DNA of 64,000 bases from Patescibacteria group bacterium (GTDB lineage Bacteria > Patescibacteriota > Minisyncoccia > Phycocordibacterales > JACOZG01). The DNA is taken from assembly GCA_038065495.1 (NCBI GenBank), contig JBBTQW010000001.1, positions 44,137 to 108,136 of the forward strand. The letters run 5' to 3'. Positions 8,417 through 62,977 of this stretch are shown one piece after another (within the stretch, counting starts at the first letter, position 1; each line of letters begins with the position of its first letter). A model generated the notes under the pieces. That model worked only from the letters and a program-made list of their open reading frames with translations, made no database searches and was not told the DNA's origin. A program made the position numbers and the translations under genes.

Positions 8417-8505
8417 GAGTTTAAATTTGGCTTAAATTTTTAACAGCCAAATTCTAGCAAACTAGCGCCTATTAGCCAAGAGTCGAAGCAGAGTCTCGGT
8501 GGGCA

Positions 8506-9675: not shown

Positions 9676-9722
9676 ATTTTATTTGTTAATTTCTAATTTA
9701 TCAAAATCCTAGCACAAGCTGA

Positions 9723-10472
9723 TTATTCTCCCAAATACGCCTCCACTACCTCTCGCTGCGCCAGCACCGCACTTGGCTCGCCCTCGGCGAGCAACTGACC
9801 GGAATCCAGCACAATCACGCGATCCGAAAGTTGCCGAATCAGCTCCATATTATGCTCGATCAAGATCACGACTTTATTTTGCTGTTTTAAATCTTGCAAC
9901 ACATTCGTCACAATTTTGATCATCTCGGGGAAAAGTCCGGCAAATGGTTCGTCGAAAAGAAAGATTTGAATCGGGAAAGTCTGCGCCATCGCGAGCACGC
10001 GCGCGATTTCCAACAATTTTCTCTGTCCGTACGAGAGATTAATCGCCAGTTCGCCATGTTTGCTCCACAAATTTACTTTTTCTAAAACCTCGCGCGCTCG
10101 AGCTAAGTGCAGATTGTTATGCTTTTCAAATAGTGCGCTAAAAACTGGTCTGTCTGTTAGGACTACCAAAATATTATCCAGCACACTCATTTGTTCAAAA
10201 AGTCGCACATCCTGAAAAGTCCGGGTAATCCCGTAACTCGGCACTTGCGCTATCTCTACTTTCTTTAACTTCGTCCGTTCCAGAACTACAATTTCCCCAC
10301 CATCTAGCGGCAAAACGCCGGTAAGCAAATTCACCAGCGTACTCTTGCCCGAGCCGTTGGGTCCAATGATGCTGGTAATCTGCCCGGCGGCAAACTGGAG
10401 CGACAAGTGATCCACCGCGTGCACGGCATCAAACTTCTTTACTAGATTGTGAGTGGAGAGGATGGGAGGCAT
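9723..10472 (-). CDS. livG: branched-chain amino acid ABC transporter ATP-binding protein (LivG-type)
   Basis: 249 aa with GPNGSGKST, LSYGQRKLLEIAR and FLFDEP. It shares a start/stop junction with the upstream SBP gene. Confidence 0.9.
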   Translation of the reverse strand: MPPILSTHNLVKKFDAVHAVDHLSLQFAAGQITSIIGPNGSGKSTLVNLLTGVLPLDGGEIVVLERTKLKKVEIAQVPSYGITRTFQDVRLFEQMSVLDNILVVLTDRPVFSALFEKHNNLHLARAREVLEKVNLWSKHGELAINLSYGQRKLLEIARVLAMAQTFPIQIFLFDEPFAGLFPEMIKIVTNVLQDLKQQNKVVILIEHNMELIRQLSDRVIVLDSGQLLAEGEPSAVLAQREVVEAYLGE

Positions 10473-11599
10473 TATGGTTGGGTATAAAGAACCGCTTTCC
10501 CATTAACGATTTGCTTGACGGTTGGCAGAAGACCAATTGCGTCGCCATTTTCATCGAAACCATAAGTCCCCATTACCCCTTTAAAATCCTTGAGGCTGTG
10601 CAAATAGTCTTTTAGTTTCGAGTTATCCAAACCAACATTATCAATAGCCTGCTTTATCATATAAACAGAATCGTATGTAACAGCGTCAGCAAACTTGATT
10701 GTTGGTGCACGACCATAAAGCGACTCAAATTTATGGAAAAGTTCACTTTTTATTTGATTGTTACCAACATTAGGATCAGCAAAGAAAATCATTCCTTCTG
10801 CTTCGGATATTTCAATGACTTCTTCTAATTCACCAAAATAATTACCGTAAATTGGACCTTTATATCCCAATTGCCGCAATTGTCTTAACGCAGAGATTCC
10901 CCCAAGTGGTGCATTTGGATTCATAACCACTGTTTCTGGTTTTTTGGAAATTACATCAAGGACATAACCCCTAAAATCGGTAGTACCTGGAGGGTAATTT
11001 TCTTCAATGACTTCTCCTTGAAAATATTTTTTAAATGCCTTAAGTAAACCGACTGTAAAATCACTCGTTTCTGTTATGACTGCTACTTTCCCATACTTTT
11101 TATTAATCGTCTCCGCCATAACTCTACCAGTATCATCATCAGAGTAAGAATTACGGAAAATAAATTCTCCAGCACCAGTTAAATCAGGATGCGTAGCCCA
11201 CATCGACATCATCAAAACTTGATTCCTCTCGGCCACCGGTGCTACCGCCAAGGCTTCTTGACCACAAATCACCAACAGAATCTTCACCTTGTTTACCGTA
11301 ATCAATTTTTGCGCCGCAGAGAGTGCATCCTTGGGACCACATTTACCATCCTCGTAAATGATTTCTAAAGCCTGACCATTAACACCTCCGGAAGTGTTTA
11401 TTTCCTCGCGAGCGATTTCCACAACATCCCTCATTTCTTCCCCCCAAGCTGCAGCAAAACCAGACAACGGGCCGATAAAACCAATCTTCACAGTCTCACC
11501 ATTTTTTTCTCCAGAATTCTCACTTTTGCTCGCATAAACAGCGATAAAAATTAGCGCGAGAAGTACGAATAACCAGATTATTTTGTTTTGGGCTTGCAT
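10472..11599 (-). CDS. ABC transporter substrate-binding protein, LivK/Peripla_BP_6 family (paralog 3)
   Basis: 375 aa with VKIGFIGPLSGFAAAWGEEMRDVVEIAREEINTSGGVNGQ. Confidence 0.85.
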   Translation of the reverse strand: MQAQNKIIWLFVLLALIFIAVYASKSENSGEKNGETVKIGFIGPLSGFAAAWGEEMRDVVEIAREEINTSGGVNGQALEIIYEDGKCGPKDALSAAQKLITVNKVKILLVICGQEALAVAPVAERNQVLMMSMWATHPDLTGAGEFIFRNSYSDDDTGRVMAETINKKYGKVAVITETSDFTVGLLKAFKKYFQGEVIEENYPPGTTDFRGYVLDVISKKPETVVMNPNAPLGGISALRQLRQLGYKGPIYGNYFGELEEVIEISEAEGMIFFADPNVGNNQIKSELFHKFESLYGRAPTIKFADAVTYDSVYMIKQAIDNVGLDNSKLKDYLHSLKDFKGVMGTYGFDENGDAIGLLPTVKQIVNGKAVLYTQP

Positions 11600-11611
11600 G
11601 ATTTTATTTTT

Positions 11612-12478
11612 TTATAATTTATATTCCCCTACCAAGCCTTGCGGGCGGTAAAGCATTAGTATAACTAAAATCAGACCATAGACCACCTGCCGCATCTGCG
11701 CCGCGATGTCGCTGGGGAAGCCCACAAAGCGCAATAATTCTGGCAAGAGAATGAGAAACAAAGCGCCGAGTAGCGAGCCACGGAGATTGGCTAAGCCGCC
11801 CAGAATGATAATAGCGAGAATAAAGATAGATTCAAATAGAACGAAACTAGACGGATCAACGAAGGTGATGTAAGAGGCAAAGAGCGAACCAGCCACGGCA
11901 GCCAGCGCGGCTGATAAAACAAAGATTATGAGTTTGTAAAAAGTGGTACGATAGCCAAAAACTTGGAGCGCTTGTTCGTCCTCGCGAATAGCGCGGAGGG
12001 CGCGGCCGAAAGAAGAATTGACGATAAAGCGGCATAAGAAATAAACTAATAACAAAATCGCTAGCACTAATAGCAAAAAGTGAAAGTTGTCAGTCAAGTT
12101 GAGGCCAAAAATCTCCGGACGTCTAATACCGGGGATGCCGAGCGGACCTCTGGTTAGGCTTTGCCAGTTGAGGAAAACCGAATAGATAATAATGTTAAAG
12201 CCAAAAGAGCCGAGCGCGTAATAATCGCCGTGGAAGCGGGACAAAACTAAACCAATTAACAAAGCCAAGACAGAAGTGATGAGCACGCCGAGTAGCAAAG
12301 CCACGAAAAAGTTGAGCCCGGTGCTGGTGAGCAAGATCGCCGTGGCATAGGCGCCCAGACCATAGAACGCCGCATGCGTCACACTTAGCAAGCCGGTGTA
12401 GCCCACCACCAAGTTTAAGCTCAAGCCGAGGATGCCGTAGATGCCAACAAGGATTGCTAAGTGAATTAAGTAAGGCAT
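11612..12478 (-). CDS. livM: branched-chain amino acid ABC transporter permease (LivM-type)
   Basis: 288 aa, polytopic, with the LivM-like GYTGLLSVTHAAFYGLGAY motif. Confidence 0.85.
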   Translation of the reverse strand: MPYLIHLAILVGIYGILGLSLNLVVGYTGLLSVTHAAFYGLGAYATAILLTSTGLNFFVALLLGVLITSVLALLIGLVLSRFHGDYYALGSFGFNIIIYSVFLNWQSLTRGPLGIPGIRRPEIFGLNLTDNFHFLLLVLAILLLVYFLCRFIVNSSFGRALRAIREDEQALQVFGYRTTFYKLIIFVLSAALAAVAGSLFASYITFVDPSSFVLFESIFILAIIILGGLANLRGSLLGALFLILLPELLRFVGFPSDIAAQMRQVVYGLILVILMLYRPQGLVGEYKL

Positions 12479-12490
12479 GATTTTTTACTT

Positions 12491-13351
12491 CTATCTTTTG
12501 AACAAGCCCTGCGGGCGGAAAATTAAGAACACAATTAGTAAAGCAAAAGCGATCGCGTCCTTCCACTCGCCCGAGATCTGCCAAATGCCAAAGTTCTCCA
12601 CCGTGCCAAGCAAGAAGGCGCCCAGCACGCCGCCATAGATATTGCCGATGCCGCCCACAATCGCCGCGATCACGCCCTTGAGCAGCAAGTTGAGCCCCAT
12701 CGTCGGCTCAATGCCAGTGTCGAAGCCCACCAAGACGCCCGCCAAGCCACCAATGGCCGCGGAGAGGAAGAAGACAAAGCTGATGATTTTATCAGTATTA
12801 ATCCCCACCACCCGCGCCACCTCTTCATCATCGCCCACCGCTTTAATTGCCCGGCCAAATCTAGTCCGATTGAGGAAGAACGCTAGCGCGAGCATAATCA
12901 GCAAGCCGCTGGCAAGAATCACCAACTGCACGCCGGTAATCGCGCCGCCAATCACTTCATAAATTTTCCCTTCGCCAGCCGAGAGAGTTTGAAACTGACT
13001 GGAAAACAGGATCGCAATCACGGCTTGGAGAGCTGTGAAAATCCCGAGCGAGGCCACTAGCAAGACCATTGTCGAGGCTTTGCGGCGGCGCAATGGTCGG
13101 TAAACGAAGTAATCTGCTAAGTAACCAACCAAACCGGCAAGTAAAATTGCCAAGACCACGCTCAAGCCCAAGTTCAGACCGATTATTTTATACAACCAAT
13201 ACACGCCATAACCACCGATCGCCATCATCACGCCGTAACTAAGGTCAAAAAACTTGACCGTGCTGTAGATGAGATTAAAGCCAAGCGCGATCATCGTGTA
13301 GATCGCGCCGGCGATAATGCTATTGAGAATGAGTTGCGGCAGGATGCCCAT
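12491..13351 (-). CDS. livH: branched-chain amino acid ABC transporter permease (LivH-type)
   Basis: 286 aa, polytopic BPD_transp_2-like. Confidence 0.85.
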   Translation of the reverse strand: MGILPQLILNSIIAGAIYTMIALGFNLIYSTVKFFDLSYGVMMAIGGYGVYWLYKIIGLNLGLSVVLAILLAGLVGYLADYFVYRPLRRRKASTMVLLVASLGIFTALQAVIAILFSSQFQTLSAGEGKIYEVIGGAITGVQLVILASGLLIMLALAFFLNRTRFGRAIKAVGDDEEVARVVGINTDKIISFVFFLSAAIGGLAGVLVGFDTGIEPTMGLNLLLKGVIAAIVGGIGNIYGGVLGAFLLGTVENFGIWQISGEWKDAIAFALLIVFLIFRPQGLFKR

Positions 13352-13371
13352 TGGGCGAGATTTTTACTTTT

Positions 13372-14544
13372 TTAGCTAGCCAGTTCGGCCTTGCCGTTCT
13401 TGATGACTTTCAACACGTGGCCGCCCACACGATCACCGTCCGCGCCGATCGTTACCAAACCAGAAGCTCCCGGCCAATCTTTGACTGTTCTTACCCAAGT
13501 GGCAATCTTTCCCGCATCAGTCCCGTTTTTGTTAATTCCTTCTGCCAGAATATAGACTAAGTCGTATTGTGCTTGAGCATAGTTACGATAAATCATTTCT
13601 TTGCCGTATTTTTTGAGATAGTCCGCGTCGAGTTTTTGCGATTTCGGCAAGCTCGCTGTCCCTTGTTCGGCAACCAATGCGCCCTCAAGTCTCGTTTTGT
13701 GATTAGTAATCAAGTCAGCATTGCCAGAGACAATGTCGTTTGCCAAGAGTGGCACCGACCACTTGAGATCAGCTAGCTGTTTGAGAATCCGTTCGGCCGT
13801 GCCAGGAGATTGAGGATCGATGAACAAAGCATCAGCATTCGCTGCCCGCAATTTCGTGAGAGTAGAACGAAAGTCAGTGGTAGTGCCTGGATACTCTTCT
13901 TTCGTGATTGTCCCCGCCGTTGCTGGGTAATTAGCTTCGAAAGCACGATAAATACCAAGAGCATAATCCGAGGATTCCTGCAGAACGGCTACCTTTTTCC
14001 AACCATGAGCAATCGCGGCCTCGGCTAGCACCCGACCCTGGCCATTGTCGCTAGCCACAGTCCGGGCGAAAAACAGACTTTTGTTTGTCAAATCAGGACT
14101 AGTGGCTGTGCCAGAAAACACAAAGACTTTCGCTTGCTCGGCAATTGGCAAACCGGCCAGAACGGCGCCAGAACAATCCGAGGCGATCACAATCTTGACG
14201 CCGTCAGCGTTGACTAACTTCTGCATTGCATTAGCACCGCCAGTGCCATTGCATTTCCCGTCTTCGTAAACTAGTTCAAATGTTCGGCCATTAATCACAT
14301 TATTTGTGTTGACTTCTTCCACCGCTAGATCAGTCACATTTTTCACAAACTCTCCCAAAGCTGCGGCGTCGCCAGTTAGTGGCGTAATCACACCAACCTT
14401 AATCGGCCCAGTTTCCACCACCGGAGTGGGAGTTTCTGTAGTAGTGGGTGCGCTAGATTGACTCGCTTTGCCGAGATAGGCCAGACCGATAACCAACAGA
14501 ACCAAGATAATCAAACCAACTATCGCTTTGCCAGTATTGCTCAT
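13372..14544 (-). CDS. ABC transporter substrate-binding protein, LivK/Peripla_BP_6 family (paralog 4), first gene of operon
   Basis: 390 aa with IKVGVITPLTGDAAALGEFVKNVTDLAVEEVNTNNVINGR. Confidence 0.85.
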   Translation of the reverse strand: MSNTGKAIVGLIILVLLVIGLAYLGKASQSSAPTTTETPTPVVETGPIKVGVITPLTGDAAALGEFVKNVTDLAVEEVNTNNVINGRTFELVYEDGKCNGTGGANAMQKLVNADGVKIVIASDCSGAVLAGLPIAEQAKVFVFSGTATSPDLTNKSLFFARTVASDNGQGRVLAEAAIAHGWKKVAVLQESSDYALGIYRAFEANYPATAGTITKEEYPGTTTDFRSTLTKLRAANADALFIDPQSPGTAERILKQLADLKWSVPLLANDIVSGNADLITNHKTRLEGALVAEQGTASLPKSQKLDADYLKKYGKEMIYRNYAQAQYDLVYILAEGINKNGTDAGKIATWVRTVKDWPGASGLVTIGADGDRVGGHVLKVIKNGKAELAS

Positions 14545-36248: not shown

Positions 36249-36603
36249 GACAATACAAGCACCAAGCGTTAATCACGAAAGCTTGGAGATAAACGAAAGC
36301 AAGCGAGGCCGAGAACGCAAGCAAACTGAGCCACCAGACTACTTTGATCAACTTTTTATTCGGCTGTTGAAGGTTAAGTAAGATTAAAATAAAAACCGTG
36401 AGATAGAAAAGCGCGCCAAGCAGAGCGACTGGCACGCCAGCGATCTGGGAATAGACACTATTCGTGACCGTATCGCAACCAGCTAGGATAGTACACGGGA
36501 TAGGCGTGCCAGTGTAGTGCTTGATCGTGAGAAAAGTGGCATCGGCAAAGCCAATGAAGCTAAGCGCTAAGAGCGTCAGTGATAAGTTTTTTGAATTCAT
36601 CAT
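36184..36603 (-). CDS. vitamin K epoxide reductase (VKOR) family membrane protein
   Basis: 139 aa. VKOR family placement is by resemblance only; no canonical CXXC redox motif was located. Confidence 0.7.
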   Translation of the reverse strand: MMNSKNLSLTLLALSFIGFADATFLTIKHYTGTPIPCTILAGCDTVTNSVYSQIAGVPVALLGALFYLTVFILILLNLQQPNKKLIKVVWWLSLLAFSASLAFVYLQAFVINAWCLYCLISALTSTLVFLSASVFVRRA

Positions 36604-37324
36604 AACTTTTAGGATTAGTGATCTTGCCGCCGTTTAAGTAAAAAGTGGGTGTCCCCTCCACGCCCGAGCGCAAGCCACTCTGATAATGTTGCTCGATTTT
36701 ATCTTTTACTATTTTGGTATCAATATCAACTTCGAGTTTAGTGAGATTAACGCCGGTATTTTTTATTAAATTTACTAGTGTCTCGCGCGCGGCAATCTGC
36801 TCGGACCAAGCCTGCTGACCAGCATAGATTGCATCGGCGGCTAACCAGAACTTGCCCTGCAAACCAGCCGCCTCGACTACTTGTGAGGCCAGTTGAGCGT
36901 TCGCGTGATTCTGGCGGAGTGGGAAGTGGCGGAAGGTCACACCAATCTTATCACCAAACTCCTCACGCAACTGCGTTACCCAAGTAGCATAAAAGGCGCA
37001 AGCTGGGCATTGGAAGTCGCCATACTCCACCAATTGCACTGGAGATTCTTGACTACCAGCCGTCCAATCTGCGGCGGTCACCGGATCAGCCAGCTTGCCC
37101 GCCACAGCGCCAGCGCCTGGAGGCGTGACTGTGGCGAGTTTATATAAACCAAAAACCGTGCCAGCGAGAATCAATACTGCGAGTAACCAGGGCCAGAGTT
37201 TGCGTCCAGAATTACCACCACTACTCGCGCTAGCGCTGGAATTGCTATTCTTCTGCTTTTGCCGCGCCTCGCGCTCTTGCTCGTAAAGTTCTTTGGGACT
37301 CAAATTAGATTGATTTTCAGTCAT
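36560..37324 (-). CDS. DsbA-like thioredoxin-fold thiol:disulfide oxidoreductase, TM anchored
   Basis: 254 aa. A TM anchor is followed by YGDFQCPACAFY (CXXC). It overlaps the VKOR gene by 44 nt. Confidence 0.8.
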   Translation of the reverse strand: MTENQSNLSPKELYEQEREARQKQKNSNSSASASSGGNSGRKLWPWLLAVLILAGTVFGLYKLATVTPPGAGAVAGKLADPVTAADWTAGSQESPVQLVEYGDFQCPACAFYATWVTQLREEFGDKIGVTFRHFPLRQNHANAQLASQVVEAAGLQGKFWLAADAIYAGQQAWSEQIAARETLVNLIKNTGVNLTKLEVDIDTKIVKDKIEQHYQSGLRSGVEGTPTFYLNGGKITNPKSYDEFKKLITDALSA

Positions 37325-50108: not shown

Positions 50109-50303
50109 ATGGACATTTTCCAGTGTCTATGCGTGGCCGCTATGATCGTCGGCGTGATTGGCTTTATTGCCAGTTTATGGGGAATCGGTCTCGGTTTCTT
50201 GGCTAGGTTATCACTGCGGACCGCTTGCTTTGCCTGCCAACAAATCCGGAGAGCCCGCCGTGAACACAAAAATAAAACAAAGAAAGAACAGGTGAAATCA
50301 TGA
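50109..50303 (+). CDS. small TM protein (64 aa) with Cys-containing basic tail
   Basis: Start at MDIFQCLCVAAMIVGV with SD AACAGGAGAATAAA-ATG. Its TGA stop overlaps the next ATG (ATGA), indicating translational coupling. Confidence 0.5.
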   Translation: MDIFQCLCVAAMIVGVIGFIASLWGIGLGFLARLSLRTACFACQQIRRARREHKNKTKKEQVKS

Positions 50304-51061
50304 AGTGGAAAAGTGCGCTCATTTCCATTGCTCTCGTAACTCTGACAATTTGGGCATTATCCTGGTGGAACAAAAACTCCACCAAATTACCACCGCCACC
50401 AACAGCACAGACGACAACAGGTACGACAAAGGAAGACAAAGAAACGGAAAGCAAGACAGACCGCACAACACCAACGCTGATCATGGTGGCAATAGTCGCC
50501 ACGATTGTCGTCGGAATTGCAATCAAACGACAGAGAGAAAAAGCTGAACTCGAGCGTCAAAAAAAGATTGCGAAAGAAACCCCCAAAGAGAAAGAGGCCA
50601 GACTGGATCAGGAGAAAAAAGACAAAGAAGCTTGGCAGAAAAGAAAGAAGAGTTTGAGTAAGTGGTTACTTGCCACTTTTCTAATCCTCCTCATCCTCTT
50701 CGCTGGCTGGAAAATCGGAGTAGTGGGTTATGTGCGGCAAGCTATGGCCAGCAACTCACGACCGGTGGGTACTGTTACAACAGTAACCAGAGCTCCGGCA
50801 CCGCAAATGCCGAGGTCTGGACATGCTGAGCTGTGGGTAGATGATCAGCACTGGGAAGAATTCGAGATCCATCACGAGGATGTCGAAATTCACCACTTCA
50901 ATGACGGACCAGTGGTTATCATCCCACCCCACGGCGCACCGGTGAGAAGTTATCCTAAGGAAGTCACCGTGTGGCCAAAGGATACTCAACGCAAGGGTGT
51001 CTGGCGCGTCCAGGCACTAAACCCTGGGCCGAAGTTTCGAGACACGTGGACTTGGGACTAA
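50300..51061 (+). CDS. hypothetical membrane protein (253 aa, 3 TM) with Thr-rich and Lys/Glu-rich linkers and His-rich C-terminal domain
   Basis: Start coupled to the upstream small gene. C-terminal HWEEFEIHHEDVEIHHFNDG. Confidence 0.6.
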   Translation: MKWKSALISIALVTLTIWALSWWNKNSTKLPPPPTAQTTTGTTKEDKETESKTDRTTPTLIMVAIVATIVVGIAIKRQREKAELERQKKIAKETPKEKEARLDQEKKDKEAWQKRKKSLSKWLLATFLILLILFAGWKIGVVGYVRQAMASNSRPVGTVTTVTRAPAPQMPRSGHAELWVDDQHWEEFEIHHEDVEIHHFNDGPVVIIPPHGAPVRSYPKEVTVWPKDTQRKGVWRVQALNPGPKFRDTWTWD

Positions 51062-51134
51062 ACTCCCGAGTACCAAAAAGCCCCGCGCGCAACTACTTGT
51101 TGCGTGGCGGGGCTTTATTTTTTGATTTAGCAGA

Positions 51135-51416
51135 TTAGCGACAGTTAATCGTCGCGCAAACCAAGTTGAGAATACCGATCGCCGAGATCATAATGAAGAG
51201 GCCAATCACACCCCAGAGCACATGCTGGGCGCCCTTCTTGCGCGCCTCCTCATTGGTCTGCTCCGAGAGCATCTCGTACACACCGTAGAGAAAGGTGACA
51301 AAGGCGACGGCCCCCAAGAGTGTAATAATCGGCTTCGCAATTTTATCTACCACCTTATCAAGCACCGGCAAGCCTTTAACAGCTTGGGCATAAGCGACTG
51401 GCCAGAAGTTGGACAT
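51135..51416 (-). CDS. VirB2/TrbC-like (T4SS-pilin-like) small two-TM protein, paralog 1
   Basis: 93 aa. Architecture is leader, TM1, charged loop (EQTNEEARKKGAQH), TM2 (LWGVIGLFIMISAIGIL) and a short tail. Confidence 0.55.
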   Translation of the reverse strand: MSNFWPVAYAQAVKGLPVLDKVVDKIAKPIITLLGAVAFVTFLYGVYEMLSEQTNEEARKKGAQHVLWGVIGLFIMISAIGILNLVCATINCR

Positions 51417-51429
51417 GCTTAATAGCTAA

Positions 51430-51792
51430 CTACTGACGCGGAATCTGAGGCAACGGCTGGCCAGGACCCTGACTATTGCCAAGACGGAAGGTGCCGCCGA
51501 GCAAATTGACTAGACCCCAAACCGAGACCATCACAAAGATCGCGATAATACCATTGATCATCATACTGCGACCGGCGGACTGTGCATCTTCGTCACCAGC
51601 CGACATCACATACTTGAGCACGCCGTAGAGGAAGTAGACCACGGCTAAACCGATGATGAGCGGAATAACGTAAACGTTGATAATCCGGATAATGATCTCA
51701 AAGATTCCCTCCACACTATTCTGCGCTAGCGCGAGCACTGGCAGGGCCAGAGCGGCCAGAGGCACAGCATACTTTTTTACAATCTGTAACAT
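51430..51792 (-). CDS. VirB2/TrbC-like (T4SS-pilin-like) small protein, paralog 2, with signal peptide
   Basis: 120 aa. Signal peptide (AVPLAALALPVLALAQNS), TM1, loop (SAGDEDAQSAGRSMM), TM2 (INGIIAIFVMVSVWGLVNLLGGTF). Confidence 0.6.
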   Translation of the reverse strand: MLQIVKKYAVPLAALALPVLALAQNSVEGIFEIIIRIINVYVIPLIIGLAVVYFLYGVLKYVMSAGDEDAQSAGRSMMINGIIAIFVMVSVWGLVNLLGGTFRLGNSQGPGQPLPQIPRQ

Positions 51793-51868
51793 ATTTTTTA
51801 CTTATTTTACTTCTTATAAACTAATAATAACTAAACTAAGTTGACCCCTAAATTATACTAAACTTGGG

Positions 51869-52153
51869 CTAAGAACCAAAGTAGGGCAATGGCGGCGTGC
51901 TGTTATCTAGCACAAAGGTGCCACCCAGCACATTTACCAAGCCCCACACCGAGATCATCACAAAGAGGCCAATAATCCCGTACAACATCATCTTCCTCCC
52001 CTCTTCTTGCTCTTTGGCATCGCCTGCTTTGCTCATATATTTTAGCACCCCAAGGAGAAAGTAGACAACCGCCGCGCCAATAAATAGCGCAATGAGCGGC
52101 TGCAGAATCGCGTCGGTAAAGAGTTTGACTAAGCCAGCAAAATCTCTAGTCAT
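51869..52153 (-). CDS. VirB2/TrbC-like (T4SS-pilin-like) small protein, paralog 3
   Basis: 94 aa. Clearly paralogous to 51430..51792, sharing ...VVYFLLGVLKYMSKAGDAKEQEEGRKMMLYGIIGLFVMISVWGLVNVLGGTF. Confidence 0.6.
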   Translation of the reverse strand: MTRDFAGLVKLFTDAILQPLIALFIGAAVVYFLLGVLKYMSKAGDAKEQEEGRKMMLYGIIGLFVMISVWGLVNVLGGTFVLDNSTPPLPYFGS

Positions 52154-52180
52154 AATATTTTATATAATTATTTAACAAAA

Positions 52181-52516
52181 TTATTTCAAGCTATTAATCG
52201 TCTGGCCGATGGCAGAAGAAATGATGTACGCACCCAATATAATCGCCGCGCCAATGACCACGCCCAGCAGAGCACGTTTCGCGTCACTCAACTTATCCGG
52301 TGCGCCACGAGCTTGGACGAAGAGGAAACCCACATACACTATCGCCACCACCAGCACCGGCAGGCCCACCTGCACTACAATCTCGAGCAATTTATTTACA
52401 AAATCTTGAATGCTACAAATATTGATCGGATTGCTGATTGGCCCGGAACCGCCGCAGTTGCCTGAGCTTGGACGCGGGATTACATCAGCCGCGTAAACGA
52501 TAAATTGATCTAACAT
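52181..52516 (-). CDS. VirB2/TrbC-like (T4SS-pilin-like) small protein, paralog 4 (Cys pair N-terminal to TM1)
   Basis: 111 aa with NCGGSGPISNPINICSIQDFVNKLLEIVV, TM1, loop (QARGAPDKLSDAKRA) and TM2. Confidence 0.55.
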   Translation of the reverse strand: MLDQFIVYAADVIPRPSSGNCGGSGPISNPINICSIQDFVNKLLEIVVQVGLPVLVVAIVYVGFLFVQARGAPDKLSDAKRALLGVVIGAAIILGAYIISSAIGQTINSLK

Positions 52517-52546
52517 GACGAGTTCATTCTAGCACTTTATTGCTCA

Positions 52547-53011
52547 CTACTGGGGCAAGAAGCTGTGGACAGAGCTCTTGAGCGTATCTTTGGCGAGATA
52601 ATTAAAGATCGTATTGACGATTAGCCACGCGGCCAGCACCAGCGCCAGGCCAATGATCGCCGCCTGCAGGATCTCAATTGCTTGCTTGCGCTTCTCCGGT
52701 TTGGCTGGCTGGCTGGCCATGCCAATGCCGGCATAAGCAATCGCCACGGTGGCCACCGGCACAGCGAGGACAAAAGTAAAATAGTTCACAATATTCTGCA
52801 CAAGCTTAAAGAAGTCATTGGTCTGGCACTCGGCCTGGCCGGGATTGCCGCAAGGCACAATATTACTAGCCACTTGCGCGTGAGTCACCGAAGCCGAAAA
52901 AATTAGCGTGAGGCTAAAAAGTAAAACTAAAGCGAGAACAATAATTCTGCTAAATAAATTATTCATTATTATTTGCCGGCAAGAGATCTTGTAATTGCGC
53001 GCTGGCATCAC
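52547..53011 (-). CDS. VirB2/TrbC-like (T4SS-pilin-like) small protein, paralog 5 (Cys pair; start possibly internal at 52966)
   Basis: 154-aa ORF. A signal/TM is followed by PCGNPGQAECQTNDFFKLVQNIVNYF, TM1, loop (ASQPAKPEKRKQA) and TM2. The upstream 45 nt overlap the SBP-like gene, so the start may be MNNLFSR. Confidence 0.55.
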   Translation of the reverse strand: MMPARNYKISCRQIIMNNLFSRIIVLALVLLFSLTLIFSASVTHAQVASNIVPCGNPGQAECQTNDFFKLVQNIVNYFTFVLAVPVATVAIAYAGIGMASQPAKPEKRKQAIEILQAAIIGLALVLAAWLIVNTIFNYLAKDTLKSSVHSFLPQ

Positions 53012-54284
53012 TCACCGCGCGGCTGGGATCAACGCGGCCAAGCGCAAGCGACTCGGCCATCTGGCGCCAGAGCAGGAGCGTTTTATCCGGTGCCGGATCT
53101 AGCCAGTCGCGGGCAATTACGGCGGCTTGGTAGAGCACACTCTGGTCTGGATCAGCCGGGAGCGTGGCCAGCAAGTCATTACGCGCCGGTGGCAGAGTGG
53201 CCGCCGTGGCAACGAGCGCGGCAAAGTCCGGACCGGAGAGCAAGTTAGCCACGGCTATAGCCGTATTGGGATTGGCCGCGCCGCGAGCGAGGGCGAGGAA
53301 GTGGAAGCGGCCGAGAGTGAGCTGGCGCGATCCGCCCTCACGCTGGGGTGGCGTGGCAATGTAGAAGTTAAGTTGGGGATTCTGCGCAGCTAGGCGGTCG
53401 ATCTCACTGCCCCAGCCCAAGTACATCGCAAGCTTGCCGCGGAGGAAGGCCTCACGCGCCTCGGGTTGAGAACTATTCCACGCATAGAGCGTATTGGCCG
53501 GATCGGTGAAGCGGAGGAAGAAGGCGAGAGCCTCGCTGGCTGGCTGCTGACTAAAACCCAGCGCCTCTTTAAGCGTCACTTTTGGCAACCCGGCCGAGCG
53601 CGCGACAATGGGATTGCCGGCTTGCATAATCAAGAGTGAGAGCAGCTCTTTGGCATTAGAAATATTAGAGAAAGTGCCAAGGGCAATGCCACTCTGGCTG
53701 ATATTGCCGCGGCCATCGGTCTGCGTTAATAATTTGTTCACGGTCGCTAAGTCTTTCCAAGTTCTGGGTACAGACGGCACTTTGGCATTGGCGAGCAAAT
53801 CTTGATTGTAGAAGAGCACAAGTGGATCAACATATACTGGCCAACCATAGACACCGTCCGGACCAAATAATAATTCCCAATCTCGAATATGCGTGCCAAG
53901 CACAAAAGTATCTTTGAAAGTTTGTTTAGAAAATGTTTCGTACGGAATCTGCTGAAGTTTCGCCGCTTGTCTAGTGAGAATATCAGAAGATAAAGTAACT
54001 AAATCCGGTCCGCGGCCCAGCGCTAGCGCTTCGACTAGATCATTCTCTAGCGTCTCGGGATTTTTCTCCACATATACCAGCGAGAACTGGTCTTGGTGTT
54101 CTTGTCGCGCTTTTTCTAGCACGCTATTCAGCCTTTCCGCCGGGATCGTCCCCCACCAGACCACTGTGCCGCCGAGGCCACCCGTGGGCGCGCGGAAGCC
54201 GGGCAAGACACCGGCAAAAACGAGCACGCCCACGAGCAGCGCGACGATAAAAATAGCAATGATAGTGATCTGGAAGCCGTTCAT
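52959..54284 (-). CDS. TM-anchored extracellular solute-binding-protein-like protein (possible ABC SBP family 1), GC-rich
   Basis: 441 aa. A TM anchor is followed by an alpha/beta periplasmic-binding-like sequence (GTVVWWGT..., ...AMYLGWGSE...). Family call is tentative. Confidence 0.5.
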   Translation of the reverse strand: MNGFQITIIAIFIVALLVGVLVFAGVLPGFRAPTGGLGGTVVWWGTIPAERLNSVLEKARQEHQDQFSLVYVEKNPETLENDLVEALALGRGPDLVTLSSDILTRQAAKLQQIPYETFSKQTFKDTFVLGTHIRDWELLFGPDGVYGWPVYVDPLVLFYNQDLLANAKVPSVPRTWKDLATVNKLLTQTDGRGNISQSGIALGTFSNISNAKELLSLLIMQAGNPIVARSAGLPKVTLKEALGFSQQPASEALAFFLRFTDPANTLYAWNSSQPEAREAFLRGKLAMYLGWGSEIDRLAAQNPQLNFYIATPPQREGGSRQLTLGRFHFLALARGAANPNTAIAVANLLSGPDFAALVATAATLPPARNDLLATLPADPDQSVLYQAAVIARDWLDPAPDKTLLLWRQMAESLALGRVDPSRAVSDASAQLQDLLPANNNE

Positions 54285-54823
54285 GATTTTAATTCTTTTA
54301 TTTTAGCAAAAATCAGACCATAATGATGCTCCCCGGCTGGGAAATTTTCTTGGAACTCAAAGCCAGCCTGCGTGGCAATCTCTTTGACCTGATCTGGTTT
54401 AATTATTTTTTCCGTATTTGGTCCGAGATTAGAAAAAGAATCACTCCAGTCTATTACTATTAGTTTTCCATCCGCTTTTAAAATTCTTTTCGCCTCCAAG
54501 AACATGCTATATTTCTGCTCGGACTGGAATAAAATATTCGCTACCAAAACAGCATCTACACTAGCATCTTGCAATTTAGAGCCACCGAGTTTATCCACAT
54601 CGCCCCAGAGATATTTAATATTCGTGACGCGACGAGATTTAGCCTCGTTCGCTAATCTATCTAGCAATTCCTTCTGTACTTCTACTGCATACACCATCCC
54701 GCTATTACCCACGCGCGCCGCCATAGCCAGCGTGTAAGCGCCCGAACCGGCACCAAAGTCGGCGACGCGCGCGCCTTCTCGCAAACCAAAATACGGTACA
54801 TTTTTTTCCGGATCAGAGAACAT
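54281..54823 (-). CDS. class I SAM-dependent methyltransferase
   Basis: 180 aa with the SAM motif VADFGAGSGAYTLAMA and DAVLVANIL motif II. Confidence 0.8.
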   Translation of the reverse strand: MFSDPEKNVPYFGLREGARVADFGAGSGAYTLAMAARVGNSGMVYAVEVQKELLDRLANEAKSRRVTNIKYLWGDVDKLGGSKLQDASVDAVLVANILFQSEQKYSMFLEAKRILKADGKLIVIDWSDSFSNLGPNTEKIIKPDQVKEIATQAGFEFQENFPAGEHHYGLIFAKIKELKS

Positions 54824-54875: not shown

Positions 54876-55072
54876 CTGTGATAGAATAATTTTCGACAAC
54901 TTAATAGTAAAAGTAGCCTAAACCAGTGAGTAATCACTGGCATGGCGAAAGTCAGTCACGTAATGCACAGAAAACCCATCATGGGGTCGCATTACGTGCC
55001 GTATCGGGAAACCGATACGAGTGGCGCAAGCCACTACCTGTGGTGGGCTTTCTGTTCCTCGCTACAGGTAAT
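54876..55072 (+). ncRNA. candidate structured non-coding RNA or cis-regulatory leader, unknown class
   Basis: Three plus-strand GNRA-capped hairpins: CCAGTGA-GTAA-TCACTGG, CGTATCGG-GAAA-CCGATACG and GTGGC-GCAA-GCCAC. A 10-bp stem CACGTAATGC...GCATTACGTG encloses ACAGAAAACCCATCATGGGGTC. A long-range 8-bp helix pairs TTACCTGT (54877-84) with ACAGGTAA (55065-72). The GCCAC strand can alternatively pair downstream (CCAC-TACCTGT-GGTGG), giving mutually exclusive hairpins. On the minus strand the loops are non-GNRA, so plus orientation is inferred. No ORF with an RBS is present. Confidence 0.4.
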
Positions 55073-55102: not shown

Positions 55103-55765
55103 ATGAAAATAGTGCGAGACCTTACCGTTGAATATAAAAAGAACCCAGTCCAAGCAATAATTGTGTCATTACTCATCCTCCTCGGGTTAATATTTGCGCG
55201 GTACATAACTATTTCCCTAGTTATAATCGTGTACTTAGCGAGAAAGTTTAAGAAAGACGAACGAGAGAAAAAAGACATGAAGAAGAAATGCTCGCATTGT
55301 CAGACAGAAATAACTTGGCTCGCGACAAGGTGTCCGCATTGTCACGGCAAAATGCAAGTATGGACAGCAGATTCAAAAATAGTAGCCACCATCCTAGCCG
55401 TGTCACTTTTTGTAGGAATAGTAAAGATCAGTTCAATGTCATCGAACACTTCTAGCCTAACCAACACATCACCAAGCGCCCCTTCTCAAGAACAAATAAA
55501 CAAAAAGCGAGAAATAGAATCTATTGTTTACGCAAAAGAAGTCATTAAGGAAACACTGAAAGCTCCCTCAACAGCTAAATTCGTTGATGTAAGGAGCTAC
55601 GAACTTTCAAACCAGAAAGATGTTTGGGCGGTAAACGGTTATGTAGATAGCCAAAATAGTTTTGGCGCGATGATAAGAAACATGTGGGAAGTTCAGCTTG
55701 ATTATAGAAACGGAAAAGGAGGGACGGTAAAAAGTATTCTCTTCGACGGAAAGCAGTTACAATAA
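55103..55765 (+). CDS. hypothetical membrane protein with zinc-ribbon (CxxC...CxxC)
   Basis: 220 aa. N-terminal TM, CSHCQTEITWLATRCPHCHG, second TM, and a C-terminal globular domain. Confidence 0.55.
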   Translation: MKIVRDLTVEYKKNPVQAIIVSLLILLGLIFARYITISLVIIVYLARKFKKDEREKKDMKKKCSHCQTEITWLATRCPHCHGKMQVWTADSKIVATILAVSLFVGIVKISSMSSNTSSLTNTSPSAPSQEQINKKREIESIVYAKEVIKETLKAPSTAKFVDVRSYELSNQKDVWAVNGYVDSQNSFGAMIRNMWEVQLDYRNGKGGTVKSILFDGKQLQ

Positions 55766-59761: not shown

Positions 59762-60820
59762 TTAGAAGCTCAGAACCTTGAGATACTGGCTGGAATTTAC
59801 CTCACCCGCAGAGTCGAATTGATAAGACGAAACCTGTCCGGTAATACCAGCTAAGATTTTGGCTTTTAGTTGTTCAATCGATAAGTCTTGAGCGTAGAAA
59901 GTATCGAGAATTCCAAACAAATCAAAAGTAATCGAATCATAGAACGGATATTGCGAGTCTTTGCCATATTTTGCTTTGTAGTCACTCACATATTTCTCGT
60001 AACCGGCTGTATCCAGAGACGCCTTCCAACACACGCCATGCAAACCGTAATCAGCTGGCTTGAAGGGGTAATCGCAAGTGTTCACTTCGCTAATAATTTC
60101 TGGCTTAAAGCTCTGAACTTGCATTTCCTTCAGCACCAGTTGCGCCGCTTTATCACTCGTAGGCACAAAGAGTAATGTATCAATGCCGGAGAATTTTAGT
60201 TTAGTAACTTGCGTGCGATAAGTGTTGTCATTGGCATTATATTTTTCTGTCGTCAAGATTTTGCTACCAAGATTTTCTTGCAAAAGATTGGCCAGCGACT
60301 GGGCATAATCTTGTTCTTCGTGCAAGAGACCGATCTTTTTGTTTTCTGGGATAGTCTTGATATGCTCCACCATTGCCTCGCCCACCGAGAGCGCGTCGGG
60401 AATAAATCTGATCACTTCTGTGCCAGTTTTTCTAATTTCGGCCGAGCCAGCGTAAGCGGTTAGGATTAGATCGCCATTTTGTTGAGCGAGCGGTGCGAGG
60501 GCCATCACACTGCCGCTACATGCAACGTAGAAAATCCTGACGTTTTCTAATTTTAATTTCTGGTAAGCTGAGATCGCTTTTTTAGCATCACATGGATCGT
60601 CTTCAAACATTGGGAGAATATTCTGATAAGTTTGGAGATTAATTGCATTCTTAATCGGCTCACCCATCGAGGCCACTGCTCCGCTCAGCGGGATAATCAC
60701 ACCAATCTTCACCGGTCGTTCTAGTTTTACGGCATTATCTGCCTCTGGATTTTTAGAAGCCAAAACAGCAATACCAATAACAACCACAATAACCACCAAC
60801 CAAATTATTACTTTTTTCAT
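59762..60820 (-). CDS. ABC transporter substrate-binding protein, LivK/Peripla_BP_6 family (paralog 5)
   Basis: 352 aa. A TM anchor is followed by VKIGVIIPLSGAVASMGEPIKNAINL. Confidence 0.8.
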   Translation of the reverse strand: MKKVIIWLVVIVVVIGIAVLASKNPEADNAVKLERPVKIGVIIPLSGAVASMGEPIKNAINLQTYQNILPMFEDDPCDAKKAISAYQKLKLENVRIFYVACSGSVMALAPLAQQNGDLILTAYAGSAEIRKTGTEVIRFIPDALSVGEAMVEHIKTIPENKKIGLLHEEQDYAQSLANLLQENLGSKILTTEKYNANDNTYRTQVTKLKFSGIDTLLFVPTSDKAAQLVLKEMQVQSFKPEIISEVNTCDYPFKPADYGLHGVCWKASLDTAGYEKYVSDYKAKYGKDSQYPFYDSITFDLFGILDTFYAQDLSIEQLKAKILAGITGQVSSYQFDSAGEVNSSQYLKVLSF

Positions 60821-60826
60821 GTTTAA

Positions 60827-61951
60827 TTAATTTTCTAGTTTCACAAATTGACCGTCCTTAACAATCTTGAACAAAGTTGGCTTAGAAGCAACGCCATTTT
60901 CGTCAATACTAATGTTGCCACTCACGCCGTGATAATATTTGATCTTGTGCAATTCTGTTTTGATACACTCAACGTCTTCGCCACATACTAGATAAGCCGC
61001 AACTTCCAGATGTAGAGCGTCATAAGCATTGGAAGCAAAGACATCAGGAAAAACTCCGTATAGCTGCTTAAAGTGATCACGGAAGCCGTTGCTGTCGTCG
61101 CCCAAGATAGCTGGGTCAGCAGATGAGATAATAAAACCTTCAGCAGTTTTGCCAGCCACACTAAGAACAACCGGATCCTCGTTCTGATAATTACCAACCA
61201 GTGGTGTTTGAATGTCTAATTCTTTGGTTTGCTTGATGATCGTTCCTAATGCGCCAGTTAGTTGGGTCACAAAAATCACATCCGGTTTTGCCGCTTTAAT
61301 TTTTGTCAGATTGGTTCTGAAGTCGTTAGTGTCGAGAGAAGTCATCTCGTCAGCCACCACTTGACCACCGAGTTCCGTAAATCTAGCCCCAATATATTTC
61401 CGGTAATCTTTGCCAAACTGCGTATTGTAATAAATAAAAGCCGCTTTTTTGGCTTTCAAATTATTAACCGTAAAATCAGCAATCGTTTTAGCATTATCTC
61501 TGACTAAGAAATTAGTGGAGAAGTAATAATTTTTCCCTAACAAATCATCAACGTTCGCCGCAACACCCATGCTGATAATTTTGTTTGGCTCGGTAATTGC
61601 AATAGACGGAACCAAACCAATCGCGCAAAATTGATTAATAGTTTTTACTTTATCAATATTAATCAGTTTCTGGACCGCCGAAGTAATATCTTTTGGTAGG
61701 CAAGCATCTTCGTAAACAAGATTTATCGCTAAATCTTTCTTTCCACTCTCGAGATCTTTTTTAGCGAGATCAAAACCACGTTTGATATTCTCACCAATTG
61801 AGGCGTAGTTGCCTGTCAGTGGAATAGCAATGCCAATCTTGATCACCTCACCACTTTTCACATCACTATTTTCTGTTTTATTTTTACTCGCAAAAACGAC
61901 GATGAAAATTATTGCGAGAATTATTACTAGCCAAATTATTACTTTTTTCAT
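60827..61951 (-). CDS. ABC transporter substrate-binding protein, LivK/Peripla_BP_6 family (paralog 6)
   Basis: 374 aa. A TM anchor is followed by IKIGIAIPLTGNYASIGENIKRGFDLAKKDL. Confidence 0.8.
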   Translation of the reverse strand: MKKVIIWLVIILAIIFIVVFASKNKTENSDVKSGEVIKIGIAIPLTGNYASIGENIKRGFDLAKKDLESGKKDLAINLVYEDACLPKDITSAVQKLINIDKVKTINQFCAIGLVPSIAITEPNKIISMGVAANVDDLLGKNYYFSTNFLVRDNAKTIADFTVNNLKAKKAAFIYYNTQFGKDYRKYIGARFTELGGQVVADEMTSLDTNDFRTNLTKIKAAKPDVIFVTQLTGALGTIIKQTKELDIQTPLVGNYQNEDPVVLSVAGKTAEGFIISSADPAILGDDSNGFRDHFKQLYGVFPDVFASNAYDALHLEVAAYLVCGEDVECIKTELHKIKYYHGVSGNISIDENGVASKPTLFKIVKDGQFVKLEN

Positions 61952-61975
61952 GATTAATTAATTTAGAATAACTTA

Positions 61976-62977
61976 TTACAATTTAACCGGCACACCATCT
62001 TTAATTTGCTTCAAGATCAGATCGCGCTGGTACACGCCACTGTCATTAAATTTACTGGACGAAATTAATTTATCTTTCACACACTCATAATCACCAGCGC
62101 AGGCAACCACGTTATCTGTTAGCAAAGCCGTGGCTTCTCGGGTTAAGCCAAAAACGGCGGCTTCAGCGTCAGCCATGCCGGCTGGGTAAGAATAGAAAAC
62201 GTCAGAGACGAGCGCGCGCACGGCTGGCAGTTCCACCACATAAGTAGAGAAAACGGGAACAGCCACTTTCTGCTGGCGCAATTTACTGAGACCACTGGCA
62301 AAGAAGAAGGAGATATCTGGCGAATAAATTGCATCCACTTTGGCGAGATTAATCTTGGCTATTTCGGTCGAGACATCGCTGGAATCGTCCAGCAATTTGC
62401 TCTCAATCACGATTTTGCCTTTGAAGGCCGCGCGGAAAGCATCCGCATGCGCTTGAGAAAAGGCGTTGCCGTAACTAATTAACGCCACATTCTTGTAACC
62501 CAATTCATACATTTTGTTGGCAATAAACGTTGATTCATCTTGAAGCGAATACTGGATGTTGAAGAAATTGTTACCACTTTTCTGATACAAATCAGCCGAA
62601 GCGGCAGCCGGCACCAGAGCCAAGATTTTCTGATTATTAAGCAATGGCACGATCGCCTCTTGTGGCGAGCCACAAGCCGGGCCAATCAAAAAAGAGATTT
62701 TCTGAAAGCCGGTTAACTTCTGGAAAGCCGAAACCGCTTCCTTGGGATCACATTTGTCGTCTTCGTAAACTAACTCAACATTTTTCCCAGCCGCTCCGGC
62801 CATCGCGCCTTTCCTAATTTCTTCACCGTAATCGGCCACCACTCCAGTCAGTGGTGCAATTACGCCGATCTTGATTGGCTCACTGGCCACTGGCGCAACT
62901 GGCTTCTTGCTCATCCACACCCCGCCGATTATCAAAACTAAGATAATTATTATTGCCCAAATTGTTGATTTATTCAT
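61976..62977 (-). CDS. ABC transporter substrate-binding protein, LivK/Peripla_BP_6 family (paralog 7)
   Basis: 333 aa. A TM anchor is followed by IKIGVIAPLTGVVADYGEEIRKGAMAG. Confidence 0.8.
   Translation of the reverse strand: MNKSTIWAIIIILVLIIGGVWMSKKPVAPVASEPIKIGVIAPLTGVVADYGEEIRKGAMAGAAGKNVELVYEDDKCDPKEAVSAFQKLTGFQKISFLIGPACGSPQEAIVPLLNNQKILALVPAAASADLYQKSGNNFFNIQYSLQDESTFIANKMYELGYKNVALISYGNAFSQAHADAFRAAFKGKIVIESKLLDDSSDVSTEIAKINLAKVDAIYSPDISFFFASGLSKLRQQKVAVPVFSTYVVELPAVRALVSDVFYSYPAGMADAEAAVFGLTREATALLTDNVVACAGDYECVKDKLISSSKFNDSGVYQRDLILKQIKDGVPVKL

Follow-up and report, generated by a model that had tools for sequence, protein, structure and literature searches.

The 64,000-nucleotide stretch of a Patescibacteria metagenome-assembled genome (MAG) analysed here, hereafter the window, carries downstream of gyrA five consecutive minus-strand genes that an earlier note, made from the sequence alone, had described as a tandem array of paralogous VirB2/TrbC-like pilin genes. 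The source, MAG GCA_964356885.1 (contig CAYHIU010000001.1, 334,838 bp), is Paceibacteria-like, as judged from its relatives. We number the genes P1 to P5 in window order; counted along the direction of transcription, they are positions 5 to 1, so that P5 is position 1. As the note had reported, the open reading frames (ORFs) lie at 51135-51416 (P1, 93 amino acids, aa), 51430-51792 (P2, 120 aa), 51869-52153 (P3, 94 aa), 52181-52516 (P4, 111 aa) and 52547-53011 (P5, 154 aa), and they are tightly packed, with intergenic gaps of 13, 76, 27 and 30 nucleotides (nt). The size range of 93-154 aa given there stands for the ORFs but most likely not for the product of P5: the 154-aa maximal ORF begins at a GTG and overlaps the upstream gene by 53 nt, and the true start is most likely the ATG at 52966, which is also called in the public assembly and yields a protein of 139 aa (52547-52966) beginning with a signal peptide. 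The two upstream neighbours on the same strand had likewise been recognized. A gene for a class I S-adenosylmethionine-dependent methyltransferase (54281-54823; Pfam Methyltransf_31/11/25) opens the co-directional run and is followed by the gene of a 441-aa solute-binding-protein (SBP)-like product that is membrane-anchored and of the oligosaccharide type (52959-54284; Pfam SBP_bac_8 and SBP_bac_1). The methyltransferase stop and the SBP start overlap by 4 nt (ATGA), and the SBP stop overlaps the start of the position-1 pilin at 52966 by 8 nt (ATGAATAA); the SBP-like gene belongs to the array unit and is translationally coupled to that pilin. The methyltransferase occupies the same place in the nearer relatives (loci L086, L089 and L090) and is missing from more distant loci, and its membership of the functional unit is uncertain. 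At the other end, an intrinsic-terminator-like hairpin with a U-run, recognized by RNA folding (51072-51114, minus strand) and shared with a convergent gene at 50300-51061 (+), closes the pilin unit 3' of P1; it folds at -30.3 kcal/mol (z = -4.36), and none of 200 shuffled sequences folds as well.

The five genes encode distinct VirB2-like two-helix membrane hairpins with a short basic loop, of T4SS_pilin (PF18895), a family of pilins from type IV secretion systems (T4SS). Membership in this family, which the note had proposed, is borne out for all five, since each exceeds the PF18895 gathering cut-off of 26.6 bits (P1 34.2, P2 30.0, P3 38.7, P4 33.1 and P5 43.1 bits) with a match spanning approximately positions 4-71 of the 71-position model. 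The parallel assignment to TrbC/VirB2 (PF04956, cut-off 27.9) gave a mixed picture, P5 passing (28.9 bits), P4 falling just under the threshold at 25.9, P1 scoring 13.6, and P2 and P3 giving no match. Among the NCBIfam models, the best match of all five, over nearly the full model, is NF045849, which represents the pilin-like proteins Mbov_0395 and ICE_MMCAP2_0565 of Mycoplasma integrative and conjugative elements; with scores of 33.6, 19.6, 28.2, 17.8 and 25.4 bits, all five are below the cut-off of 40 and hence are not members. Other families, among them those that had been named as alternatives, found no support: holin, immunity-protein and phage families gave no significant score in Pfam or NCBIfam, there was no PHROG holin match, and none of the five sequences contains the G/FTLIE motif of type IV (class III signal) pilins or an LPXTG motif or matches a Pfam N_methyl/pilin model. 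A profile built from the five pilins and run against all six frames of the window recovered exactly these five. The P5 subfamily belongs to a very large family: from a library of 1.84 billion proteins its profile retrieved 14,169 cluster representatives at E <= 1e-10, a number that rises to 77,311 at E <= 1e-3. Within the array, pairwise identity is 17-57%, and blastp separates the subgroups {P1, P2, P3} and {P4, P5}. The relationships singled out in the note were both confirmed: P2 and P3 are clear homologues (57% identity over 82 aa by blastp), and P4 and P5, which are 28% identical, have in common a Cys pair and, after it, an amphipathic stretch of the DF..KL..IV kind.

The architecture that the note had ascribed to all five proteins was found in part. 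Hydropathy analysis places two transmembrane (TM) segments in every pilin, but a signal peptide, as judged from hydropathy and inspection, only in P5 (MNNLFSRIIVLALVLLFSLTLIFSASVTHA, followed by Q) and P2 (ending …LALPVLALA, followed by Q). P1, P3 and P4 comprise no more than the two TM helices even when read as maximal ORFs, and for P4 an in-frame stop is found 15 nt upstream of its ATG. The short forms of these three proteins are conserved in the two nearest relatives and are thus not truncation artefacts. In the order of transcription, position 1 therefore comprises a signal peptide, the Cys pair, an amphipathic helix, TM1, the basic loop and TM2; position 2 has a Cys pair and two TM helices without a signal peptide; position 3 is a bare two-TM hairpin; position 4 combines a signal peptide with two TM helices; and position 5 is again a bare two-TM hairpin, with a short N-terminal segment, WPVAYAQA, and a C-terminal Cys pair (CxxxxC). 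An AlphaFold2 (AF2) model of P5 (pLDDT 74) consists of a signal-peptide helix and a helical hairpin (residues 49-85 and 90-125), and fold searches with this model were non-specific, as expected of a bare hairpin.

Some further features of these proteins deserve mention. The pilins without a signal peptide start with a conserved segment resembling the end of one, such as WPVAYAQA (51135-51416) and FIVYAADV (52181-52516), and the alignment consensus of the position-5 N-terminus is MxFxxIPxAxA; these short segments could be vestigial signal peptides or short leaders cut by a dedicated peptidase. A DsbA-like thioredoxin-fold oxidoreductase is encoded at 36560-37324 (-) and could form extracellular disulphides in the Cys pairs of the pilins at positions 1 and 2 and in the C-terminal CxxxxC of P1. 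Finally, the databases contain poly-pilins, namely the proteins P0015 (606 aa), P0016 (552 aa) and P0019 (1775 aa), in which 7, 6 and 16 PF18895-like hairpins, respectively, follow each other in one chain, each repeat having TM1 and TM2 joined by an SGGD..K loop and preceded by an amphipathic helix. Such covalent poly-pilins would be polytopic membrane proteins.

To place the array in a comparative context, we took one genome per GTDB species and scanned with the P5-family alignment, which gave 80 loci, all in Patescibacteria MAGs; the informatively named relatives are Nomura-, Kaiser-, Zambryski-, Campbell-, Giovannoni- and Moranbacteria and RAAC4_OD1_1 (Parcubacteria/Paceibacteria), and the GyrA of the window is 62-66% identical to those of its relatives. 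In most of these loci a P5-like gene heads 5-8 co-directional pilin genes, array size ranging from 4 to 8 genes across genomes, and the conserved neighbourhood comprises S1, Pth, a beta-lactamase-fold protein and GyrA. The order of the pilins is fixed. Across the 39 five-gene arrays, best matches at the same position numbered 1418, 1382, 1165, 1185 and 1278 for positions 1 to 5, with an off-diagonal maximum of at most 99, and 355 of 384 pilins found their best match in another genome and not in their own array. Window P4, for instance, matches position-2 genes elsewhere, and P1 matches last-position genes. Each position also carries its own signature across the relatives: a signal peptide is invariably found at position 1, along with two TM helices and the Cys pair, and in most cases also at positions 2 and 4, and position 5 is as a rule a bare hairpin. 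The families of positions 5 and 1 are nevertheless homologous to each other (hhalign 96.9%, E 1.3e-10).

The two nearest relatives used for the analysis of selection, L089 (SBP 88% identical) and L090 (71%), have an identical layout of gyrA, methyltransferase, SBP and five pilins, with matching lengths that include the forms without a signal peptide. The ratios of nonsynonymous to synonymous substitution (dN/dS) against L089 are 0.11, 0.19, 0.07, 0.03 and 0.12 for positions 1 to 5, compared with 0.06 for the SBP and 0.04 for GyrA; position 2 is the fastest-evolving pilin, position 4 is the most constrained (93% aa identity), and all five are under purifying selection. Position-specific orthology together with purifying selection indicates five distinct, non-redundant subunits rather than interchangeable variants, which agrees with the individual essentiality of the pilins of Ca. 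Southlakia epibionticum considered below. Beyond what the note could show from the sequence alone, the genes are orthologous subunits in a fixed order and not a simple paralogous expansion.

Several further points emerged from the comparison. Positions 3 and 4 (51430-52153) of the present genome, at 57% identity, are at least as similar to each other as to their orthologues elsewhere and surpass the 54% published as the highest identity within an array; they have probably undergone a lineage-specific duplication or gene conversion with one another. In approximately ten genomes position 1 bears an extra N-terminal extracellular domain of 150-500 aa (e.g. L021:1311-3122, L006:4722-6347, L053:8936-10264 and L080:8909-10279), and in approximately six the last pilin bears a C-terminal extension of 400-680 aa without a Pfam match (e.g. 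L007:11738-14062, L010:11846-14116 and L023:11639-13648), so that the extended end-position pilins reach 603 aa (position 1) and 774 aa (position 5). These extensions suggest that the array ends are attachment sites of surface domains, consistent with surface exposure of positions 1 and 5. In addition, large serine recombinases (Resolvase, Recombinase and Zn_ribbon_recom domains) lie 1-3 kb downstream of arrays, near tRNA genes, at L069:12902-14422, L064:14227-15936 and about 12 other related loci, and may mark an integration hot spot beside the module.

The array is also divided internally, the last two pilins forming a putative sub-operon with its own promoter-like box and leader, for which promoter activity is predicted from the sequence. 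A gap of at least 50 nt precedes the penultimate pilin in 34 of the 39 five-gene arrays, and the sole consistently large gap shifts with array size, following gene 3 in five-gene, gene 4 in six-gene and gene 5 in seven-gene arrays. Within this gap, 30 of the 39 arrays have a TAnAAT -10-like box, often in the extended form TGnTATAAT. In the window, the corresponding AT-rich spacer (51793-51868, minus strand) contains an extended -10-like box (TAGTATAAT at 51852-51860) and then the leader ahead of position 4. A leader hairpin with a GGUCG loop follows the box in 17 relatives (z -1.4 to -4.2), the window copy (51793-51868) being degenerate (z = -0.2), and the 18 folded leaders, from the 17 relatives and the window, comprise 15 distinct stems. 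The general layout is an extended -10 box, a hairpin whose loop contains or adjoins an invariant GUCG (wholly within the minimum-free-energy loop in 13 of 17) and then a AUUAUUAUAAGG-like motif, as at L007:11286-11421, L035:8393-8498, L049:11469-11575, L069:8886-8992 and 13 other related loci. A search of seven related loci against Rfam returned tRNAs only, in a set that includes just one of the 17 leaders and none of the four cited here. The leader may be an undescribed cis-regulatory RNA.

The upstream partner of the pilins was characterized from profile matches and a predicted structure. Its Pfam matches (SBP_bac_1/SBP_bac_8) score 60.0 and 57.8 bits, and the top Foldseek matches of its AF2 model (pLDDT 89.5) are manno-, malto-, cyclodextrin- and sophoro- (beta-1,2-gluco-)oligosaccharide binding proteins (E ~1e-22), with a sequence-profile match to oligosaccharide-binding proteins at E 6.8e-29. 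As modelled, the SBP-like protein has an oligosaccharide-binding fold, sugar binding itself being a prediction. The fold is that of the family-1 oligosaccharide binding proteins of ATP-binding cassette (ABC) systems, such as CpMnBP1 (4r9f/4r9g) and MalE; in contrast to these, the partner protein has an N-terminal TM anchor, no adjacent permease or ATPase gene, a linkage to the pilin array and, in some cases, fusion to a pilin. No permease or ATPase gene was found beside the SBP gene or among the recurrent neighbours of the related loci, and the ABC genes that the window does contain, 40 kb from the SBP, belong to the branched-chain amino-acid type. The linkage itself is nearly invariable: arrays were considered if they had four or more pilins and sufficient sequence upstream, and in 63 of these 64 an SBP gene, detected with the SBP profile, lies directly upstream on the same strand. 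Moreover, three of 50 database homologues (P0171, P0173 and P0182) are single chains that combine SBP_bac_8 with PF18895. They represent separate protein clusters, of which P0171 and P0173 could be traced to contigs from different samples, and they share the synteny of the window. In these fusions, an Ala-rich or short linker takes the place of the pilin signal peptide, and the order is SBP domain, LVPC…C Cys-pair region, TM1, basic loop and TM2, a topology that makes sense, as both the SBP domain and the N-terminal region of the pilin are extracellular.

Among known systems, VirB2 of the Agrobacterium T-pilus, TrbC of RP4 and TraA of the F pilus share the small two-helix hairpin, with its short loop in the cytoplasm and its two termini outside. 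These canonical systems have one major pilin, which is encoded inside the T4SS operon and carries a long cleaved signal peptide. In contrast, the present array has five distinct subunits, three of them without a signal peptide, as well as Cys pairs, a monoderm host and a locus detached from T4SS genes. PrgF of Enterococcus pCF10 (MPF-FATA), a 75-aa bare two-TM hairpin with a polar loop, resembles positions 3 and 5. The position-5 alignment gave a non-significant hhalign probability of 1.9% against pCF10 PrgF, and the CONJScan PrgF profile apparently matches the last two array genes of a related genome, a mapping deduced from the accessible part of Table S3 of PMC12102498; homology of position 5 to PrgF is unproven.

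The closest experimental parallel is Ca. Southlakia epibionticum, in which a predicted pilin series lies within an essential T4SS cluster (Wang et al. 2023, PMC10633639) and all six PF18895 pilins, SEML1_0014-0019, were growth-defective or essential in transposon sequencing (Tn-seq; PMC10633639 supplement). That array likewise consists of tandem divergent PF18895 hairpins, of ~100-185 aa, whose individual non-redundancy matches the position-specific orthology of the window. It differs in comprising six genes rather than five, in belonging to the class Saccharimonadia rather than a Paceibacteria-like organism, in lying within a T4SS cluster beside VirB6-like, PrgI and VirB4 genes rather than downstream of gyrA without a T4SS gene nearby, and in having no SBP-like partner listed (PMC10633639). 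In a broader survey, 441 VirB2 arrays of 2-11 genes were reported from 383 assemblies, with a mean identity of 25% and a maximum of 54%, and by analogy with Bartonella and Anaplasma their variability was read as helping adaptation to different hosts (Quiñonero-Coronel et al. 2025, PMC12102498). The present array has the characteristics of such a Patescibacteria VirB2 array, with five tandem PF18895/PF04956 genes of low identity at a chromosomal locus with no relaxase nearby. The survey was, however, centred on virB4 neighbourhoods, its arrays were mainly from Microgenomatia and Saccharimonadia, and its main text mentions neither a solute-binding partner nor a gyrA context. Judged by its Table S3, described below, it captured no more than fragments of such an array.

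The module lies far from T4SS genes. The note had found no VirB4, VirD4 or VirB6 in the window, and our scan of window ORFs of at least 150 aa plus 10 kb beyond each edge agrees, with no homologue of VirB4, VirD4, VirB6 or PrgI/VirB3 in the inspected 81.5 kb around the array, out of a contig of 335 kb. The suggestion that the array may serve a distant apparatus fits the picture in other genomes. In Table S1 of PMC12102498 four genomes that bear the module, all of them Paceibacteria, are listed as VirB4-positive: RAAC4_OD1_1 (L029), Nomurabacteria GW2011_GWE2_34_25 (L078), Zambryskibacteria RIFOXYD1_FULL_40_13 (L054) and Athens0714_16 (L024). Other Paceibacteria appear in that table as VirB4-negative. 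For RAAC4_OD1_1, the accessible part of Table S3 (PMC12102498) places VirB6, PrgI, TrsD, VirB4 and one PF18895 pilin at coding sequences (CDS) 531-537, and we estimate from contig position that the array lies at about CDS 296. In the same part of that table an isolated PrgF is listed and none of the array pilins is given as VirB2, although all five clear the PF18895 threshold. The entries for the Nomurabacteria genome include, remote from virB4, three genes in succession given as VirB2, PrgF and PrgF (PMC12102498), which from their nearness to the contig end are probably array positions 3-5. Together, 9 of the 10 array genes of these two genomes pass the PF18895 cut-off, and virB4-distal arrays in Paceibacteria appear to be under-counted by the published survey.

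With moderate confidence, we favour as the likeliest a model in which the five ordered pilins and the SBP form one conserved Paceibacteria module for a heteromeric, T4SS-dependent surface structure with a glycan-binding partner. In this model, the hairpins, once inserted in the cytoplasmic membrane, would have their loop inside and their two ends outside, a topology in keeping with the positive-inside rule, given that the loops are basic and the N-tails acidic; positions 1 and 4 would use cleavable signal peptides, and the others would insert as short N-tail proteins. A distant T4SS of the monoderm type (VirB4, TrsD, PrgI/VirB3 and VirB6), encoded elsewhere in the genome, would then take up the hairpins as the subunits of a heteromeric filament on the surface or of a channel extension. 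The bulk subunit would come from position 4, perhaps together with position 5, because the position-4 gene's own promoter-like box and extreme conservation, the strongest sequence constraint in the array, make it the best candidate for an abundant structural subunit. Positions 1 and 2 would be exposed minor subunits, as suggested by their disulphide pair and fast evolution (dN/dS 0.11 and 0.19, with position 5 at 0.12). The SBP-like protein would dock on position 1 and either bind host-surface glycans or capture oligosaccharides in an epibiotic lifestyle.

Several points weigh against this model, and a T4SS-independent explanation draws on much the same observations. T4SS dependence is argued from family homology and the Saccharibacteria precedent, and the filament and sugar binding by the SBP are both putative. 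No VirB4-like ATPase was found within ±10 kb of the 80 related arrays, where every recurrent neighbour, every ORF above 700 aa and each checked Walker-A ORF of 450-720 aa had another identity. The fusions keep an N-terminal hydrophobic anchor, so that the position-1 pilin, unless cleaved, would stay membrane-tethered, and the single chains of 6-16 concatenated hairpins are awkward for the extraction of single subunits and hard to fit with their assembly into a pilus unless they are processed. An alternative is therefore a membrane complex in which the SBP and the five hairpins self-assemble as an embedded ring or channel, similar to ATP-synthase subunit c, with no pilus and no VirB4, and in which this complex would receive oligosaccharide from the SBP or anchor it. 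The absence of VirB4 beside the module in all 80 related loci and of T4SS genes in the 81.5 kb examined here would be as expected, as would an SBP without a nearby ABC permease or ATPase partner, fusions that amount to three-TM proteins and the covalent concatemers; furthermore, in a structure-based annotation one Southlakia pilin has ATP-synthase subunit c as its top ECOD match, and the separate single pilin beside VirB4 in RAAC4 could be the real T4SS pilin. However, the only experimentally tested array, that of Southlakia, lies inside a T4SS cluster, P5 and P4 match the TrbC/VirB2 profile, which represents true conjugative pilins (above and just below its cut-off, respectively), VirB4 is present in all four module-bearing genomes that could be checked, and there is no known precedent of an SBP feeding a channel built of hairpins. 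We consider such a complex unlikely, if still a serious contender. It is also doubtful, in our view, that the SBP and the five hairpins make up a self-contained apparatus, widespread in Paceibacteria and so far unrecognized as a unit, with the receptor mounted on or fused to a VirB2-like subunit; similarly tentative are the forms that it might take, a glycan-targeting pilus tip or base, or an SBP-fed hairpin conduit that takes host sugars without an ABC permease.

The published interpretation of such arrays (PMC12102498) would make the five genes interchangeable major pilins for antigenic or host-range variation, comparable to the virB2 arrays of Anaplasma and Bartonella. The low within-array identity of 17-57%, in line with the published mean of 25% and maximum of 54%, the faster evolution at positions 1 and 2 (0.11 and 0.19, against 0.12 at position 5) and the variation in size from 4 to 8 genes between genomes would all be in keeping with it. 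Interchangeable variants are nevertheless difficult to reconcile with the strong position-specific orthology across 39 genomes, with an architecture peculiar to each position (signal peptide, Cys pair and length), with purifying selection on all members and with the individual requirement for all six Southlakia pilins; recombination cassettes or silent copies were not noticed either, although no systematic search for them was made. We therefore regard this interpretation as improbable. Very improbable indeed is that the proteins are not pilins at all but unrelated two-TM proteins (holins, immunity proteins or type IV pilins) that resemble PF18895 through hydrophobic composition. Short hydrophobic proteins do yield many weak Pfam matches, the fold search was non-specific, and tblastn of P1 and P2 against 72,556 plasmids returned nothing. 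Against such an accident, all five pass one curated cut-off near full length while all competing matches are below theirs, no PHROG holin match and no G/FTLIE prepilin or LPXTG motif is present, 14,169 relatives at E <= 1e-10 have the same architecture, and the conserved chromosomal context is not that of a phage or bacteriocin locus.

The remainder of the window is ordinary chromosomal housekeeping in content, with genes for GyrA, TopA, two ClpB-like ATPases, IF-2, SerRS, SodA, DprA, ParB, MiaA and Dus in addition to the DsbA-like oxidoreductase, nine tRNAs and many branched-chain-type binding proteins. The latter Peripla_BP_6 (branched-chain amino-acid type) paralogues are crowded at 7289-14544 and 59762-62977 (-), with at least seven in the window and more past its edges, and are accompanied by one permease and ATPase gene set only. 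A full-length LOOT RNA (Rfam RF03000) lies at 54915-55035 (+), with a score of 89.3 bits where the gathering score is 46.4 (E 1.3e-15). It is flanked by the methyltransferase gene and, 68 nt downstream of the RNA, by an ORF for a 220-aa Zn-ribbon/TM protein (55103-55765, +). The seven closest related loci lack this RNA, which therefore has no tie to the pilin module.

Arrays of VirB2-like pilins had been described from the phylum before (Wang 2023; Quiñonero-Coronel 2025), and the basic class of feature is thus not new. What appears to be an undescribed variant is the virB4-distal, gyrA-linked module of an oligosaccharide-type SBP and five order-conserved pilins. Relative to the literature, the fixed order of five old, distinct subunits, the SBP partnership of the pilin array and the separate sub-unit of the last two pilins each appear to be new; the layout, with five subunits in fixed order, coupling to an SBP and a position far from the machinery, was not found in the literature searched, and a full-text search for published work combining Patescibacteria, a solute-binding protein, T4SS and pilin found none. 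In addition, the two genomes checked indicate that virB4-centred surveys can miss, or only partly detect, virB4-distal arrays.

Patescibacteria account for much of the diversity of uncultured bacteria and lead a life attached to host cells, and their unusual T4SS with its pilins is among the few systems shown to be essential for this host-attached lifestyle. If the array indeed comprises distinct conserved subunits, one of them with a sugar receptor, a defined multi-subunit architecture would replace the published reading in terms of variation. If the SBP and the hairpins formed a self-contained apparatus in either of the forms considered above, this would be the first solute-binding protein as an integral part of a VirB2-type structure. 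For Paceibacteria, the phylum's largest class, a conserved module of distinct pilins with a sugar receptor would be a concrete and testable candidate for recognizing host surfaces or capturing nutrients.

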